64,000 nt of DNA from a virus (Duplodnaviria > Caudoviricetes), in the IMG/VR virus record IMGVR_UViG_3300037424_000564, positions 1 to 64,000 of that record. The stretch is one strand, 5' to 3'. Position 1 is the first letter of the stretch, and every line of letters starts with the position of its first letter. Made by a program: the position numbers and the translations under genes. This document shows, in pieces, positions 47,522-61,484 of this stretch. The notes beneath the pieces were generated by a model. It was given only the letters and a program-made list of their open reading frames with translations. It was not told the origin of the DNA and ran no database searches.

Positions 47522-49627
47522 TTATACCCAATCAGTCATAATACGATCCAAATCAAAAGGACTTAGATCCCCATCTTCTGCAATAACATAATCTGCATCA
47601 GATCTACGATAAACGATATCTGCACCTTGAGCAATAATATTTGAAACAAAAATATCATATAGAGAAGCAGATGTGTTTGCCATTTGTGTTGCTTTAGCAG
47701 CAGTAGCAACAGTAATTGGAAGAGTATTCTCTACACGAAATCCACTACCATCAATAGTAGTAGCTAGATCACACCAAATAATTTGATTATTTCTAATATC
47801 AACAATCAAAGGACTGGTTGAAGTAGCGTCAGCAGTTAAATCACAACGACCTTTGACAGATTTTGGTTCAAAGATTTCTCCTGAATTTACAGAAGAACGT
47901 TCCATCCATCCCATAAAACCAACTTCTAATTGATTCATTTTTTGACCAGTATAGCTATTAACATTACATACAACGTAAGCAACATTTGGATCAAGAGAGT
48001 TAAGATTTACATCAATAAATTCACTTGCACCAGTAGGAGCATCAACAATATCTCCAGAATGGTAGTAAGCATTATTACTACCACGTAGGTGTGTCCAAGA
48101 ACAATTACCTAAGTAATTCCAATCTGCGTCAAATGTAACAGCAGAAAGATCTAAATCAACTCTATTAGAGCCAATATTCTGCCAGTACATGAACAATCTA
48201 ACAGTAGGTGCAGTCAAATCAAAACGTGAACCTCGTCCAACTTGACGTAGTGCTGATGATGCACTACGATTACTAGAAGGAATTAACAGATTTTGACAGA
48301 TATCATCAATAAATACGTTTTTTCCCTTGATTTCAGTTTTGTCTTTATATTTTTCAATGATGGCATCAATAATAACTCTGACGATTCGATGCGTAATATC
48401 GTCTGTAAGTGGTTTTAAATTATTTTCAATGGTAATCACAGCATGAGATTTTTTAGGTAAAAAGATCCTATTTTTATAAGAACAAAGTTCATTACGACCA
48501 CGGAAATATCCATATAGTTGCCAAAGGACAGTTGTTGAAACTGAATTTGCAACTTTAGCAAATTCATTAATAACCTTATTAGGATTTGTTGCTTTATTAA
48601 TTAAAGCATTCAAACGTCTAGCGAAGTCACCGGGACGAGTTGCACATTTAGACAGAACTTCATCAATTAATCCAAGTTCAATGAAATATTCAATAATAGA
48701 ATTATAAGTCTTACAACCTTCATTACGAAGAGCATGAAAACAATCTACTGTTTGTGGGAATTGGGTTGAATATTCTCTTGGATGAAGCTTTTCAGCAACA
48801 CGAATCCATTTGTTGCGATGACGCATCAAATCTTCCCCAACATTGCTTGGATTCATTGATTCAAGTTTAGATAGAATCAATCTACGAAGTGAACGAGGGA
48901 TATTTTTATATTTGGTGTTTTTACCGAGAGATACATCACCACCAGACAGACTTGTAATGAAACGAAGAACATCAGTTGCAGTGGTTACTTGAGTATCCCA
49001 AACATTCATAATCATTTTGCGTTGATTTGATGTCGCTGTTTTACCATCACCAATAATACCAAATAGAGTTGCCATTCTTTCTTTATTGGTGAAGATTGCG
49101 TTACAAGAGAATCCAAATTCTACAAAGGTTTCAATATCAGAAACATCCTGAACTGAAGGAGAAGCTTTGGATTCGAGAATAGTTTTAAAACAATCAACAA
49201 TATCCTCCATAACACCTAAACCAATCCATTTTGCTTCGGTGATATCAGTGAAAGGAAAACGATATGATGTGTTATAATTTGGAATAAAGGAAGGATTGAG
49301 ATAATGACAAATAGCATTAATATAAAGTTCTTCCTCAGAAGCGGTAGCTACTTGTACAGGAAAATTACGATACATAGGACGATGATATACTATCCCATTT
49401 TGCTCTTTGATAATAGAAACAACAAAGTCATACAATGACTTTAACGTAGAAGAACTGGCAAGTTTCATTTCACCAATAAATTTTTCATCAAACACATAAC
49501 CTAGATCAGCAACATTCGCTATAATTGCACCAACCATACCGATAGGTGCTACATTTTCAGTAGACTCCGCACTGAAAACAATTTTAGATTTACGGCGAAA
49601 AATGATTGCATCGATTGAGTTAGTCAT
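47522..49627 (-). CDS. 701-aa protein with helical N-terminal region (possibly TROVE/Ro-like) and C-terminal TerD domain
   Basis: RVDLDLSAV, HSGDIVDAPTGASEFIDV TerD motifs. The TROVE assignment is inference. Confidence 0.7.
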   Translation of the reverse strand: MTNSIDAIIFRRKSKIVFSAESTENVAPIGMVGAIIANVADLGYVFDEKFIGEMKLASSSTLKSLYDFVVSIIKEQNGIVYHRPMYRNFPVQVATASEEELYINAICHYLNPSFIPNYNTSYRFPFTDITEAKWIGLGVMEDIVDCFKTILESKASPSVQDVSDIETFVEFGFSCNAIFTNKERMATLFGIIGDGKTATSNQRKMIMNVWDTQVTTATDVLRFITSLSGGDVSLGKNTKYKNIPRSLRRLILSKLESMNPSNVGEDLMRHRNKWIRVAEKLHPREYSTQFPQTVDCFHALRNEGCKTYNSIIEYFIELGLIDEVLSKCATRPGDFARRLNALINKATNPNKVINEFAKVANSVSTTVLWQLYGYFRGRNELCSYKNRIFLPKKSHAVITIENNLKPLTDDITHRIVRVIIDAIIEKYKDKTEIKGKNVFIDDICQNLLIPSSNRSASSALRQVGRGSRFDLTAPTVRLFMYWQNIGSNRVDLDLSAVTFDADWNYLGNCSWTHLRGSNNAYYHSGDIVDAPTGASEFIDVNLNSLDPNVAYVVCNVNSYTGQKMNQLEVGFMGWMERSSVNSGEIFEPKSVKGRCDLTADATSTSPLIVDIRNNQIIWCDLATTIDGSGFRVENTLPITVATAAKATQMANTSASLYDIFVSNIIAQGADIVYRRSDADYVIAEDGDLSPFDLDRIMTDWV

Positions 49628-50298: not shown

Positions 50299-50366
50299 TT
50301 GCGGTGATTAATAGGCTGATTTAGTTTAATAATATTAAGTAGAAGGATGCCTTAATATAGCCGCAA
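50299..50366 (-). ncRNA. GCATCCTTCTA-motif structured RNA, copy B
   Basis: Outer stem TTGCGG/CCGCAA; inner 8-bp hairpin presenting an 11-nt conserved loop. Confidence 0.7.
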
Positions 50367-50703: not shown

Positions 50704-51258
50704 TTAATAACTTTTACTTTCTTCGTATCGTTGTCTTCTATAAAATCTACCATTACCTATATTTTTTGATCTATGGTTATCAGTTTGAGTATGACAATTA
50801 GGACACAAAATTTCTAAGTTATCTGGTTTGTTATTAGAAGAATTCCCATCTTTATGATGTATTTCGAGTGTTAAGGCAATACCATTCCATTCTGAAATAT
50901 TACACTTACAACAAGATGAATATATTTCTTTGATATATTTTCTTACCGTAGCAGGATCTAATACTTCCCCTAAGCGAAATTTATTTCTATAATATTCTTT
51001 ATTTTTTACTACCTTATTTTCTTTAATTTTTGAAATAGTCCTACAAACACCTAAGTTATTAAAAGAAGCAGCACATGAATGATTGCAATATGTTAATTTC
51101 TTTTTTTCATATGATAATGGAGTCAGGCAAAACTTGCACAATTTTGGATCTTTATTATAATCTTCGATTCGTTTTGACTTTTTTGTTGCTTGTGTTTCTC
51201 TTCCTCGTTTAGCCGCTTCTTCAATTTTATTTTTGTTTTCTTCTGATATGCTTCTCAT
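50704..51258 (-). mobile_element. HNH homing endonuclease
   Basis: LEIHHKDGNSSNNKPDNLEILCPNCH; TATAAATA at 51288..51295. Confidence 0.88.
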
Positions 51259-51322
51259 AAAAATCTCCTATAAATGTTTCTTATAGTTATTTATAAAAAG
51301 CCCATCAGTTTATTCGGACTTG

Positions 51323-51407
51323 AGCCGGAAGAGGGATTCGAACCCCCGATGTAGTTTCCATACCTGATTACAAGTCAGGTGCAATCGACCAACTATGCGA
51401 TTCCGGC
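51323..51407 (-). tRNA. tRNA-Thr(UGU) with 15-nt variable region
   Basis: GCCGGAA/TTCCGGC acceptor, CCTGA-CTTGTAA-TCAGG anticodon arm, TTCGAAT T-loop, U73. Confidence 0.85.
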
Positions 51408-52383: not shown

Positions 52384-52477
52384 TGGTACTCCGTGAGGGA
52401 CTTGAACCCCCATCATGCGATAATCTGTCGCCAAGCCTGTGTATAAAACAGGTGCTTTGCCATTAAGCTAACGGAGC
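52384..52477 (-). tRNA. tRNA-Ile(UAU) with 24-nt variable arm
   Basis: CCTGT-TTTATAC-ACAGG; variable-arm stem GCGA/TCGC; CCA. Confidence 0.85.
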
Positions 52478-53231: not shown

Positions 53232-53315
53232 TGGCAGACGCAGGGGGAGTCGAACCCACAACACAAGTTTTGGAGACTTGCCTAACTCGCCCGGTTAGAT
53301 GAAGTTCCTGCATCT
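53232..53315 (-). tRNA. tRNA-Trp(CCA) with 10-nt acceptor-to-D-stem linker
   Basis: AGATGCA/TGCGTCT, CAAGT-CTCCAAA-ACTTG, G73, CCA. Confidence 0.8.
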
Positions 53316-53320
53316 ATTTT

Positions 53321-53391
53321 TGGTAGTTTACCTTGGAATTGAACCAAGCTATATTTCGATATGAGCGAAACATGATCCCAGATCGTAAACC
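53321..53391 (-). tRNA. tRNA(CAU) (Met or Ile2) with minimal D-arm
   Basis: TTTCG-CTCATAT-CGAAA; D region only GATC-TGG-GATC; CCA. Confidence 0.75.
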
Positions 53392-53401
53392 GTGATACTT
53401 C

Positions 53402-53573
53402 GGGCCAGTAGAAGGATTCGAACCTCCAAAGATCATTAGAATACAACCGCCAGATACGTCTATCTACTTTATGCATTCCCGATCCAACTGTAGCCTTTCA
53501 TATACTTTCAGTCATGACTCCTGCCATATATGAACACTTTCTGTCTGCGTCTTCCAATTCCGCCATACTCGCC
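53402..53573 (-). ncRNA. 172-nt tRNA-like RNA with anticodon arm replaced by a roughly 115-nt structured domain
   Basis: GGCGAGTA/TACTGGCC ends, Leu-type D-arm GCG-GAATTGGAAGA-CGC, T-arm GGAGG-TTCGAAT-CCTTC. Confidence 0.75.
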
Positions 53574-53583
53574 ATGTTTGTAT

Positions 53584-53829
53584 TTAAATAATTCTACTAT
53601 ACTTTTTTATTCTTGTCAATATTTCTTTGCAACAAATTTGATTATCGTCAAAAGATGATTCTATCCTAATTAAGATTCTTTCGTATGTCCAACCAACTGA
53701 AATTCCGGTCAAATAAAATTCATACCAATCAATAACCATATCATTATTATAAATTGAATTCACTATTAAGTCAAGTGGTATTCCTAACGAATCCGACATT
53801 TTAAAAGCATCAAACCCAGAAATAACCAT
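53584..53829 (-). CDS. Small protein resembling an alanyl-tRNA synthetase internal segment
   Basis: ISGFDAFKMSDSLGIPLDL resembles the AlaRS motif SGxDAFKLYDTYGFPLDL. Confidence 0.55.
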   Translation of the reverse strand: MVISGFDAFKMSDSLGIPLDLIVNSIYNNDMVIDWYEFYLTGISVGWTYERILIRIESSFDDNQICCKEILTRIKKYSRII

Positions 53830-53928
53830 TTTATCTTCAGTAGTTATTCCTACAGATCTTAAACCGTAACATTTTTTCCATTTGCGTTTAGCTGTTTCAT
53901 TTGTACCTCGCCTATTCTATTAAATATT

Positions 53929-54092: not shown

Positions 54093-54339
54093 AAATGTTC
54101 TAATTCCTACTTGATTCCCTATATCCCAAGCATAATACATTTCATAATCGTTAAAGAAATTATAAGGATTTTCGACTAAACTTTTCAATCCTGCTTGGTA
54201 TCCATCATTATATTCTTGTGTTAGATCTAGTCTAACTGCTTTCCCTTTTGGAACACCGGGATATTTCCTACTCATTATTTTAATTCCTTTAGTATAAATA
54301 GGCTCGATTTGCTGATAGATTATCTTCACACCTATTTTG

Positions 54340-54480
54340 CCAAGGGAGTTGGATTCGAACCAACATTCTTCTTATTACTTGATATTACCCTCTCTTATCT
54401 AAAATCAGTGATATCAACTCTGATTTGTCCATTGAGCAATAATACCTTTCATAAGGTGCTTTCCAGTCAGCTATCCCCCG
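54340..54480 (-). ncRNA. 141-nt tRNA-like RNA without an anticodon loop and with a large insert
   Basis: CGGGGGA/TCCCTTG, D-arm GCT-GACTGGAA-AGC, tetraloop hairpin, long stem domain, T-arm GTTGG-TTCGAAT-CCAAC. Confidence 0.75.
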
Positions 54481-55063: not shown

Positions 55064-55196
55064 AGCCGATAGTCGGAGTCGAACCAACGCTTGTCTTATC
55101 AATGATTTCTTAGATTTAACTAGTCATCTAAAAGCTATCTAAAGACATTATAACAGGATTTTGCAGTCCCTGCTCTAGCCACTGAGCTATACCGGC
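55064..55196 (-). tRNA. tRNA-Cys(GCA) with roughly 65-nt variable-region insertion
   Basis: GCCGGTA/TATCGGC, GCTC/GAGC D-stem, CTGCAAA loop with an extra A, U73. Confidence 0.8.
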
Positions 55197-55581: not shown

Positions 55582-55668
55582 TGGTGGGTGTGGAGGGATT
55601 CGAACCCACGCTGGCGTAAACGCCTCCTGATTAAAAGTCAGGTATATTACCACTATATTTACACACCC
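55582..55668 (-). tRNA. tRNA-Lys(UUU) with 16-nt variable arm
   Basis: CCTGA-CTTTTAA-TCAGG; variable-arm GGCG-TTTA-CGCC; CCA. Confidence 0.88.
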
Positions 55669-56145: not shown

Positions 56146-56499
56146 CTAGTCTGTCAATTTATAAATCATGACATAAACTTTTAAACCTTTTTTAGTTGCA
56201 TAATCAATCATACCTTTTGTCCCGGCAGACTTTCCGTCCCAAATAGCAATGAGCGCATCTGCATAGTCTACCATTTCTCTATTTCGGATATGACCAGCGG
56301 CTTTACCTTTACCATCCCAATCAGGAATAAAAAACTTTATAGAAATATGATTCTTTTCTGCAAACTCTTTACCTAGTCTATCTACCCCTCTAGCACCACC
56401 ACAAACAACTTCAGTTATAACAAATCTAGCTTCTTTAACAGCTTTGAGTATTAGATTATAGTCCGTTATATCTCTACTACCTGCGATGATTACTTTCAT
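56146..56499 (-). CDS. SLOG-superfamily protein (DUF2493/YspA-like)
   Basis: VIIAGSRD, CGGARGVD, AGHIRNREM, WDGKSAGT. Confidence 0.88.
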   Translation of the reverse strand: MKVIIAGSRDITDYNLILKAVKEARFVITEVVCGGARGVDRLGKEFAEKNHISIKFFIPDWDGKGKAAGHIRNREMVDYADALIAIWDGKSAGTKGMIDYATKKGLKVYVMIYKLTD

Positions 56500-57235: not shown

Positions 57236-57763
57236 TTATCTCTGAGAGGACCAGTCAGATGAACCACTGTCGATACAGACTAATGTATTGCAATAGTGTT
57301 CTTCTACATGACATCTACAACATAATGGAACACAATTTTGAATCTCTTTTAATATTCTATCCCAAGACCATCCTCTTAGGTTTTTAAATTTACTGTCTTT
57401 CTTTGTTGGGTCTACATGATGTAAATCAATAGCTCCATAATACTTATCATACCCACATTTAATACATTTTCCACCTAAATATTCAATAGCTTTTTTACGT
57501 TTTTCATTACCAACTTTTATTGTATATTTGTTGTGACATTTCGAACAAAATGATCGTTTTTTCCCATAAAATTTATCTGGATTTGTTTCACCACAAATGC
57601 ATTTATGTGTTATATTTCTAGGTGAAATTTCTATCTGTTTAGTATTATGTTCCCCATAAGGAGAGCATTCCAAACAATATTTTCTTGTATTAATTATTTT
57701 AATCTTCCCATCAATATTAACTCTATTTGGGAATTCTTTATTACATTTAGTACAGATTGGCAT
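57236..57763 (-). mobile_element. HNH homing endonuclease within the tRNA array
   Basis: CIKCGY..DLHHVDP..CVPLCCRCH; TATAAATA at 57793..57800. Confidence 0.85.
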
Positions 57764-58709: not shown

Positions 58710-58799
58710 TGGCTCCAGTGACAGGCTTCGAACCTGTAAGTTCCTTGCGAGAACGCTTGATTAACAGTCAAGTGGGTTTGCCAATTCTCCTACACTGGA
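58710..58799 (-). tRNA. tRNA-Asn(GUU) with 18-nt variable arm
   Basis: CTTGA-CTGTTAA-TCAAG; variable-arm GTTC/GAAC; G73; CCA. Confidence 0.88.
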
Positions 58800-60490: not shown

Positions 60491-60504
60491 AATAAACTAG
60501 TTTG

Positions 60505-60590
60505 CAGCGAGTGAAGGCATCGAACCATTGACGCTATTAACGTCACCACTGTTTTCAAGACAGCTTGGGGAGCCAACCCCGGCACTCGCC
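60505..60590 (-). tRNA. tRNA-Ser(UGA)
   Basis: CTGT-CTTGAAA-ACAG; long variable arm; G73; weak T-stem. Confidence 0.85.
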
Positions 60591-61401: not shown

Positions 61402-61484
61402 CTAGTGGAGATTAGCAGGCTTATATCAATTAACAGTTGAGTCCCCGAAGGGAGTAGAAGGATGCCTCTTACTATAGCCACTAG
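61402..61484 (-). ncRNA. GCATCCTTCTA-motif structured RNA, copy C
   Basis: Outer stem CTAGTGG/CCACTAG; promoter TTGACA-N17-TACAAT at 61494..61522. Confidence 0.7.

Follow-up and report, generated by a model that had tools for sequence, protein, structure and literature searches.

Stable tRNA-like RNAs were described in the tRNA regions of phages T4 and T5 some fifty years ago, and no function has yet been assigned to them. In T5, the gene rna1 (NC_005859 30501-30644) is annotated as a "tRNA-like stable RNA with unknown functions", and its product, T5 RNA1, is present in 487 phage records. The molecule combines a leucine-type D arm and a T arm with a variable arm of 6 pairs, and at the anticodon position a stem of 5 pairs encloses a long hairpin. 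Across 11 aligned records, which span 74–100% identity, the acceptor, the anticodon-position stem, and both inner helices show compensatory changes. Seven of the eight bases of the tip loop ACAUCCRC are conserved, and the variable-position hairpin is nearly invariant. The T4 species 1 RNA (rnaC, NC_000866 70908-71046) folds into an acceptor, a 60-nt arm, a 26-nt arm, and a T arm (z = -4.6). Both RNAC and RNAD of T4 have been detected on Northern blots (PMC9697503), and their roles remain unknown (PMC3014915, PMC9697503). Rfam holds no family for T4 rnaC or rnaD or for the T5 stable RNAs.

A 172-nt gene in a phage tRNA island

The window analyzed here is the first 64 kb (64,000 nt) of a 205-kb IMG/VR phage record whose completeness rating is complete. 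The phage is T4-like in its sheath, terminase, capsid, and clamp-loader genes, and it carries a tRNA island at 51.3–60.9 kb in which every gene lies on the minus strand. ARAGORN in its default mode counts 24 tRNAs in the island and Rfam 25; the size of the island is given as 30 genes, the 172-nt RNA among them. The RNA runs from 53573 to 53402 on the minus strand, exactly as the original prediction had placed it, and its features are collected in Table 1. Its GC content is 45%, compared with 32% for the window. The tRNA(CAU) gene that begins 10 nt downstream implies a single polycistronic tRNA-type transcript. On the other side of the gene, the TTGACA-17-TAGAAT site is a match to the promoter consensus only, and promoter-like sites are not enriched overall in the region (9 found versus 6.9 expected).

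Table 1 Features of the 172-nt RNA gene and its flanks, in the direction of transcription.
Feature	Coordinates	Strand	Details
Upstream small ORF, phrog_22967	53584..53916	-	81 aa from ATG at 53829; family-conserved frame open from 53916
Sigma70-type promoter-like site, TTGACA-17 nt-TAGAAT	53591..53619	-	11/12 matches; ends ~18 nt upstream of RNA 5' end
Whole 172-nt tRNA-shaped RNA gene	53402..53573	-	G-1 at 53573; C73 at 53403; C74 at 53402
Acceptor 5' strand GCGAGUA (positions 1-7)	53566..53572	-	G-1 at 53573 able to pair with C73
Leucine-type D arm GCG-GAAUUGGAAGA-CGC	53547..53563	-	A14, A15, G18, and G19 present
Predicted elongated arm at anticodon position, 60 nt (RNA positions 29-88)	53486..53545	-	19 pairs: weak base GACAG/CAGUU, then 3+9+3
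9-nt tip loop GAGUCAUGA of anticodon-position arm	53512-53520	-	Contains palindrome UCAUGA
Predicted elongated arm at variable-arm position, 56 nt (RNA positions 89-144)	53430..53485	-	20 pairs: 14 + internal loop + 6-pair hairpin
6-pair hairpin UAGAUA-GACG-UAUCUG, GACG tetraloop	53451-53466	-	Tops the variable-position arm
T arm GGAGG-UUCGAAU-CCUUC	53411..53427	-	T loop UUCGAAU
Acceptor 3' strand UACUGGC + discriminator C73	53403..53410	-	CCA not encoded; next bases C, G, A
tRNA(CAU), 3-nt D loop, CCA encoded	53321..53391	-	Next array gene, starts 10 nt after the 172-nt RNA

The acceptor, D arm, and T arm are tRNA-like, and this part of the original prediction is borne out by their pairing, by the elbow bases, and by a shell pattern that is unique in the window. 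The acceptor stem GCGAGUA/UACUGGC is paired at six of seven positions, with a G.G opposition at 3:70 and the possibility of an additional G-1:C73 pair; it closes a span of more than 140 nt with pair probabilities of 0.93–1.0, the G3.G70 mismatch excepted. U8 and G9 stand between the 5' strand of the acceptor and the D arm, whose complete sequence, GGCGGAAUUGGAAGACGC, we take to be that of the E. coli tRNA-Leu D arm with a single loop base different; the D arms of the phage's own tRNA-Leu genes are related to it as well. All of the elbow bases are there, namely U8, A14, A15, G18, G19, U48, U54, U55, C56, and A58. A composite shell pattern, made up of the leucine D arm, a gap of 95–125 nt, and the T loop, and tested with the motifs GGCGGAAUUGGWAGACGC and GGUUCRANUCC at shell spacing, has one exact match in the window and none in 100 shuffles. 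Additionally, the D-loop motif of the shell occurs a single time across the 205-kb genome.

The acceptor end departs from that of an ordinary tRNA-Leu. A survey of position 3:70 in the island finds a purine-purine opposition in the 172-nt RNA only, while the ordinary tRNAs have Watson-Crick pairs and tRNA-Ala has G3:U70. The discriminator A73, a leucine identity element that both tRNA-Leu genes of the phage carry (52068-52152 and 54500-54582), is replaced by C73. Among the other shells described below, G-1 is found only in L077, which likewise has C73. By analogy, the combination of G-1 and C73 suggests an eighth, histidine-tRNA-like pair, a reading that rests on the known identity rules of HisRS. 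C73, the G.G at 3:70, and the missing CCA could be signs of decay.

Standard finders pass over the gene. ARAGORN in default mode makes no call at 53402-53573, and a search of Rfam returns no match on the RNA either at the gathering score or at E ≤ 10. As a canonical tRNA it fails: the Rfam tRNA model RF00005 gives no score, and a 7-nt anticodon loop is absent. With the shell intact and no anticodon loop, its description in the original prediction as a tRNA-shelled, non-decoding RNA agrees with what we find.

Two other genes of the island have unusual arms. A 142-nt RNA (54339-54480) forms a class-I cloverleaf whose anticodon position holds an arm of 85 nt, and in a tRNA-Cys-like gene (55064-55196) the anticodon arm is retained but the variable arm measures 56 nt. 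Taken together, these two genes indicate that elongated arms are a recurring theme in this phage.

Predicted fold and comparison with the known RNAs

The minimum free energy of the whole RNA is -49.1 kcal/mol (z = -2.4), and its predicted architecture is a five-arm class-II cloverleaf in which two of the arms are over-long, forming rods of about 20 bp. The arm at the anticodon position contains a hairpin at positions 36-82 that can be closed, at the place of an anticodon stem, by the helix GACAG/CAGUU (27-31/39-43) with one A.A mismatch. Closing this helix costs less than 2 kcal/mol, and the energy of the complete cloverleaf is no more than 2 kcal/mol from the optimum. When the arm is folded alone it does only weakly better than its shuffles (z = -2.0), and its tip carries no 7-nt anticodon loop. 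The arm at the variable position is predicted with pair probabilities of 0.69–1.0, its 14-pair helix joining RNA positions 89-102 with 129-144; folded alone it reaches z = -4.0, and none of 300 shuffles matches it. The helix stops 2 nt (UU, U48) before the T stem, in the arrangement UGAUCU-UU-GGAGG, which is exactly the end point of the variable arm in a tRNA-Leu. Because the anticodon arm and the extra arm are replaced by rods, codons cannot be read.

This fold differs from the one first proposed, in which a single multibranch domain stood in for the anticodon arm; the prediction here is of two separate long arms on a class-II cloverleaf. Of the three helices that had been put forward for the core, two find strong support in the pair probabilities. 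The pairing TTCATATA/TATATGAA has probabilities of 0.43–0.98, with six of its eight pairs at 0.96–0.98, and AGATA/TATCT has probabilities of 0.95–1.0. The strands of the third, TACAGTTG/CGGTTGTA, could pair by sequence, but the pair probability is 0.00 and this helix was rejected. Forcing it gives -37.2 kcal/mol against -50.0, a cost of about 13 kcal/mol, because the 14+6-pair arm at RNA positions 89-144 takes the same bases, the 3' strand of the proposed helix being part of the 14-pair helix.

T5 RNA1 is built in much the same way. Both molecules have a leucine-type D arm (GCCGGAAUUGGUAGACGG in T5 and GGCGGAAUUGGAAGACGC here), a canonical T arm, acceptor closure, and a setting within a phage tRNA island. 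Both also have a long, irregular arm of 14–19 pairs at the anticodon position, which ends in a tip loop of 8–9 nt and has no anticodon, and both place a variable-position hairpin 2 nt ahead of the T stem. The arms, however, have no sequence similarity between the two RNAs, the variable arm has 6 pairs in T5 RNA1 and 20 in the 172-nt RNA, and the C73, G-1, and 3:70 mismatch of the latter set its acceptor end apart. T5 RNA1 is, moreover, a proven stable RNA with covariation, whereas the 172-nt RNA is known from its sequence alone. The T4 species 1 RNA likewise comes from the tRNA cluster of a T4-type phage. An acceptor-like helix closes it, a T arm is present, and its long arms, one of 60 nt and one of 26 nt, follow each other in the same order as here. 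Unlike the 172-nt RNA, it has no D arm and no leucine-type features, its acceptor contains U.U mismatches, and despite the similar order of the arms no alignable sequence is seen.

The T4/T5 precedent invoked when the gene was first noticed is therefore real, both in the annotation of T5 RNA1 and in the published T4 RNAC and RNAD (PMC3014915, PMC9697503). In design, the 172-nt RNA is a new orphan variant of the T5 RNA1/T4 species 1 type, and it shows that their building plan also occurs in a far-removed T4-like phage. Measured against an ordinary class II tRNA-Leu, it has the same D arm, U8, A15-U48 pair, T arm, and five-arm cloverleaf, but lacks an anticodon loop, has lower arms three to four times too long, and carries C73 in place of A73.

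Leucine-type shells in other phages

We searched for relatives of the 172-nt RNA by several routes. No ortholog was found in GenBank phages with blastn, no exact 25-mer of the RNA matched elsewhere in IMG/VR, and two metagenome scans found no ortholog. The major capsid protein has only two relatives, whose records contain no match to the RNA, and a search of IMG/VR by way of the upstream ORF returned no orthologous RNA locus. When the RNA was compared by blast with all of the loci fetched, similarity was found in the shell only and none in the arms. The 172-nt RNA is thus an orphan, and the pairing of its arms is predicted from the fold of one sequence, not from covariation.

The shell, in contrast to the arms, is widespread. 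The shell pattern occurs in at least 111 places in IMG/VR viral contigs, and in 63 of the 111 matches listed an acceptor of 6–7 pairs closes 143–170 nt; removal of two tandem tRNAs leaves 61. The cargo of these 61 listed shells falls into 32 unrelated subfamilies, within which the acceptor stems and the cargo helices covary. A motif common to the cargo was sought across 34 subfamilies, and no k-mer rose above the shuffled maximum, so that a mechanism common to the class is an assumption; GCGGUU(G) and UAGAUA recur in the cargo at a level that is not significant. In bacterial genomes (contigs, one genome per species), about 4 of the 124 pattern matches listed are shells and the remainder are tandem tRNAs, the viral and bacterial figures being proportions among the matches listed rather than densities. 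The plan therefore appears widespread and phage-enriched, with conserved shells and structured arms that are specific to each lineage.

Of the listed members of the class, 42 of 51 carry A73, 52 of 52 have U48 (as NU), and 27 of 51 end in a CAA tail. About 40 of the 61 listed shells are solitary, with no tRNA within 1.5 kb, and the genes that recur beside the shells serve early replication and recombination (Sak4-like, NinG/Rap, NinB, DnaD-like, helicase, and cI-like repressor). The 172-nt RNA fits the pattern by which the class was retrieved and has in common with it the 7-bp acceptor closure, U48, the length range, and an idiosyncratic structured cargo. It differs from the class in carrying C73 where 42 of the 51 listed have A73, and in lying inside a 30-gene tRNA island where about 40 of the 61 listed stand alone in the replication/recombination modules of small phages. 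A design rule emerges, in which the elbow and the acceptor end are kept, the anticodon is removed, and the two lower arms are extended, and the class supplies many natural variants of it.

Candidate roles and the upstream small protein

We think it probable, if with some reservation, that the locus is a genuine gene for a non-decoding, tRNA-derived RNA, which would be processed like a tRNA and act as a translation-inert mimic or scaffold whose arms give it specificity. As the acceptor, D arm, and T arm of a class II leucine-type tRNA are kept, the elbow and the acceptor end should form. Transcription would start from the gene's own promoter, probably with read-through as well, within the tRNA array. 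As for maturation, stability, and binding partners, we infer that the RNA is excised as a tRNA is, by RNase P, 3' trimming, and CCA addition, and that its likeness to tRNA would make it stable. The molecule should be unable to enter the decoding site of the ribosome. Its shell could then serve for processing, for stability, and as a dock for tRNA-binding factors, while the two arms may offer specific binding surfaces to some protein or RNA. The original prediction put forward the elbow as a possible processing or stability handle, or as a decoy or ribosome ligand.

A small ORF that terminates 10 nt ahead of the RNA offers one candidate partner. Its sole Pfam match, a faint one, is alanyl-tRNA synthetase (AlaRS; E = 0.0066, residues 2-38 against profile positions 381-417), and its sole NCBIfam match, alaS, is also faint and falls at the same place (E = 0.0087). 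An exhaustive search gathered 110 cluster representatives of small proteins into its family, and 42 of 50 aligned members match phrog_22967, which is annotated "unknown function". When solved structures were searched by phmmer with the single ORF sequence, no useful match emerged; with the family profile, the top six matches are AlaRS (E = 0.013–0.08, E. coli residues 389-424). The alignment-based model of the protein has a pLDDT of 94, and its top five Foldseek matches are AlaRS chains (rmsd 1.1–1.3 Å over 37–43 residues, 23–38% identity, E = 1.3–2.2). For both ORF models the top four or five fold matches are AlaRS, at an rmsd of 1.1–1.8 Å over 37–44 residues, with E-values of 0.6–1.3 that, like the 1.3–2.2 above, are not significant alone. 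The matched AlaRS stretch (E. coli 389-424) includes Tyr399, Asp400, and Gly403, which touch the minor groove of G3:U70 (PMC6055181). The ORF retains the Asp and the Gly of this stretch; Gly, Pro, and Leu are nearly invariant in the family and the Asp is not invariant. The N-terminal half of the protein resembles the AlaRS element that reads G3:U70. Six of ten genomic contexts of its relatives are phage tRNA islands in which the gene adjoins or overlaps one for tRNA-Leu, -Ala, -Arg, or -Tyr, and one relative is followed, after about 85 nt, by another long tRNA-shell RNA, of 207 nt. The family is absent from about 170 loci with other shells and from the T5 and T4 tRNA regions. Together, the contexts and matches make this AlaRS-reader-related protein a candidate acceptor-stem-binding factor in phage tRNA islands.

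The reading of the locus as a genuine non-decoding gene competes with explanations in which the RNA is broken or decodes after all. A decaying tRNA-Leu pseudogene, its anticodon and variable arms broken by two insertions and its shell drifting without function, would be in keeping with the G.G at 3:70, with the absence of CCA, and with C73 in place of the determinant that the phage's tRNA-Leu genes retain, and no ortholog was found to show purifying selection. Yet the elbow nucleotides are all intact, six of the seven acceptor pairs remain, a near-consensus promoter-like site lies directly upstream, shuffled sequences fold far less well than the inserted arms (z = -4.0 for one arm), and T5 RNA1 and many phage lineages conserve this design with covariation; we regard decay as unlikely. 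The splicing of the core to leave a normal decoding tRNA, the outcome that the original prediction had set against itself, is highly improbable, as no clean intron solution exists. ARAGORN in intron mode does propose a tRNA-Ser(AGA) with a 78-nt intron, but the intron falls at 31/32, the anticodon stem is mismatched, and a 24-nt variable region is left unpaired, and the call was dismissed as forced. To our knowledge, 31/32 is not among the known tRNA intron sites, and we know of no protein splicing endonuclease in bacteria; a group I core needs about 200 nt, and the insert here is far below that size. Furthermore, the fold would require two separate inserts to be removed rather than one, and across the related class the "anticodons" of intron mode are scattered over 17 amino acids among the matches listed, with just 2 Leu calls. 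A miniature tmRNA-like molecule would likewise lack an anticodon while having a tRNA-like acceptor and T arm, and the first arm does contain a 9-codon frame (AUG GCA GGA GUC AUG ACU GAA AGU AUA UGA). This possibility is barely credible. The ARAGORN tmRNA search and Rfam give only an 11–13-nt T-loop match, on neighboring genes; 3:70 is G.G and not G3:U70; and the tag end has none of the usual hydrophobic residues. The mini-frame was rejected for want of a finder match, because it is buried in the 9-pair helix, and because the RNA, unlike tmRNA, has a full D arm.

The remaining alternatives give the RNA a particular protein partner. We consider it very unlikely that it is a YrlA-like, Y-RNA-like partner of the phage's Ro60-like/TerD protein (47522-49627), even though that gene and its Y-like RNAs are 4 kb away. 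YrlA joins a tRNA-like module to a Ro-binding stem, and as the module is internal the topology is reversed relative to the 172-nt RNA, whose free ends are at the acceptor stem and not at a Ro-binding stem. An exact 10-mer, AUCCUUCUAC, is common to the T-arm/acceptor side of the RNA, where it lies in helices, and the cores of two Y-like RNAs, but it is not a rare word once a single mismatch is permitted (8 found versus 4.2 expected), and the Y RNA and YrlA models of Rfam give no match even at E ≤ 10. The tRNA region of T5, the phage of the closest analog, shows no Ro60 gene, and a search for relatives of the Ro60-like protein with which to look for co-occurrence retrieved none. Phage TROVE proteins have been linked with a tRNA-like partner in a review (PMC7824862). 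The Y RNAs including YrlA, the tRNA-like domain of tmRNA, and the 172-nt RNA all reuse the tRNA elbow in a non-decoding RNA, but the defining motifs and topology of YrlA and tmRNA are absent here, as there is neither an Rfam match nor a G3:U70. A small chance also attaches to a partnership with the AlaRS-derived upstream protein, which would dock on the irregular 3:70 pair to form an RNA-protein particle. In its favor are the 10-nt spacing of the two genes, the AlaRS matches from Pfam, NCBIfam, the family profile, and the fold searches, the Asp and Gly kept from a stretch that contacts G3:U70, the fact that no other gene of the island has a purine-purine 3:70, and the one relative upstream of another long shell RNA. 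On the other side, the relatives adjoin ordinary tRNAs of several kinds, and adjacency may merely reflect life in a tRNA island; neither the loci of the other shells nor the tRNA regions of T5 and T4 contain a member of the family; the fold-search E-values are not significant by themselves; the Asp is not invariant; and if G-1:C73 is paired, the mismatch becomes the fourth pair from the helix end instead of the third. Given these mixed genomic contexts, a specific ORF-RNA partnership is a doubtful lead rather than a finding. We would give only a slim chance to its fullest form, an inert acceptor stem on a rigid two-rod body that makes a particle with an AlaRS-derived mini-protein reading 3:70 and that may, owing to G-1:C73, be charged like a histidine tRNA. 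If true, phages would have recycled both the synthetase reader of the "second genetic code" and the tRNA shell for a job outside translation.

The start of the upstream ORF shows a further peculiarity. The frame conserved in the family reaches 29 codons upstream of the ATG and has no start codon of its own, and a Shine-Dalgarno sequence with an ATG is found at 53899, one base off frame and beside a run of A. This off-frame start could be an assembly error or a frameshift.

A small ORF resembling alanyl-tRNA synthetase

The small ORF that stops 10 nt before the Leu-type, tRNA-shelled 172-nt RNA belongs to a phage family, phrog_22967, with 110 cluster representatives. By sequence profile and predicted fold, its N-terminal half resembles the helix-loop with which the synthetase reads G3:U70 (Asp400/Gly403). 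Relatives of the ORF lie in phage tRNA islands in six of ten contexts, with a tRNA gene adjoining or overlapped. Its N-terminal 29 codons form an in-frame extension, conserved across phrog_22967, that lacks a start codon and includes TAKRKWKKCYGLRSVG. A start signal (Shine-Dalgarno and ATG) is present at 53899, 1 base off the ORF frame and beside an A run; either an assembly error in the homopolymer or a frameshift could account for this.

Features of the tRNA island, its surroundings and a related metagenomic locus
Feature	Position	Strand	Remarks
Thr, Ile, Lys, Asn tRNAs	51322-51407, 52384-52477, 55582-55668, 58710-58799	-	86-94 nt
tRNA-Trp(CCA)	53233-53311	-	D region enlarged; ARAGORN at lowered threshold only
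tRNA(CAU)	53321-53391	-	D loop 3 nt; CCA encoded; default finders negative
Small ORF, phrog_22967	53584-53916	-	N-terminal half: profile and fold match to alanyl-tRNA synthetase
N-terminal extension of small ORF	53830-53916	-	29 codons
Second tRNA-shell RNA	54339-54480	-	142 nt; class-I cloverleaf
tRNA-Cys(GCA)-like gene	55064-55196	-	Rfam tRNA, 38 bits
tRNA-Ser(UGA)	60504-60590	-	acceptor 5' strand GGCGAGU
HNH endonuclease genes (two), YspA/SLOG-family gene	50704-51258, 57236-57763, 56146-56499	-	
tRNA-shell RNA, metagenomic	L265:2503-2709	+	207 nt; z -3.2; T arm GGAGG-UUCGAGC-CCUUC

Long arms and overlooked tRNA genes in the island

The 172-nt RNA shares its island with a second tRNA-shell RNA, in which the anticodon position bears one long arm of 85 nt with a CUUAU/AUAAG stem (z -1.8). 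In the tRNA-Cys(GCA)-like gene the anticodon arm is retained and the variable arm, 56 nt long, is branched. The length of the tRNAs for Thr, Ile, Lys and Asn, all class-I amino acids, implies long variable arms. Default finders also missed tRNA(CAU) and tRNA-Trp(CCA); the 3' half of the latter has ~80% identity to tRNA-Trp of Proteus phages PM135 and Stubb. Of the other genes in the island, two encode HNH endonucleases and one belongs to the YspA/SLOG family.

Shell RNAs of other phages

T5 RNA1 (L002 2502-2645, minus strand) was compared with its counterparts in 10 T5-like phages at 74-100% identity. Across this alignment, the long arm contains three helices with compensatory changes, seven of the eight bases of the tip loop ACAUCCRC are kept, and the hairpin at the variable-arm position, GAGAUA-AAUGGUC-UAUCUC, is nearly invariant. 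The 10-mer GGUUGAGAUA is common to T5 RNA1 and rnaC, the T4 species 1 RNA.

Among the matches listed from IMG/VR (L006-L115), Leu-type shells are isolated in small phage contigs in ~40 of 61 cases, and A73 is followed by CAA, not CCA, in 27 of 51. Genes of early replication and recombination recur beside these shells: Sak4-like, NinG/Rap, NinB, DnaD-like and helicase. The 207-nt shell RNA comes from a tRNA island in metagenomic sequence, where it follows a relative of the AlaRS-like ORF at a distance of ~85 nt.

Sequences shared within the window

The initial 7 nt of the 172-nt RNA, GGCGAGU, recur in the acceptor 5' strand of tRNA-Ser(UGA), a sequence match that may be a hint that the two acceptor ends have a common origin. 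Within the 64-kb window, the 10-mer ATCCTTCTAC occurs without mismatch at just three places (53408-53417, 50339-50348 and 61454-61463, minus strand). One lies in the 172-nt RNA, on its T-arm/acceptor side; the other two lie in a pair of Y-RNA-like repeats, in the conserved core of each, and these repeats stand on either side of a Ro60-like/TerD gene.
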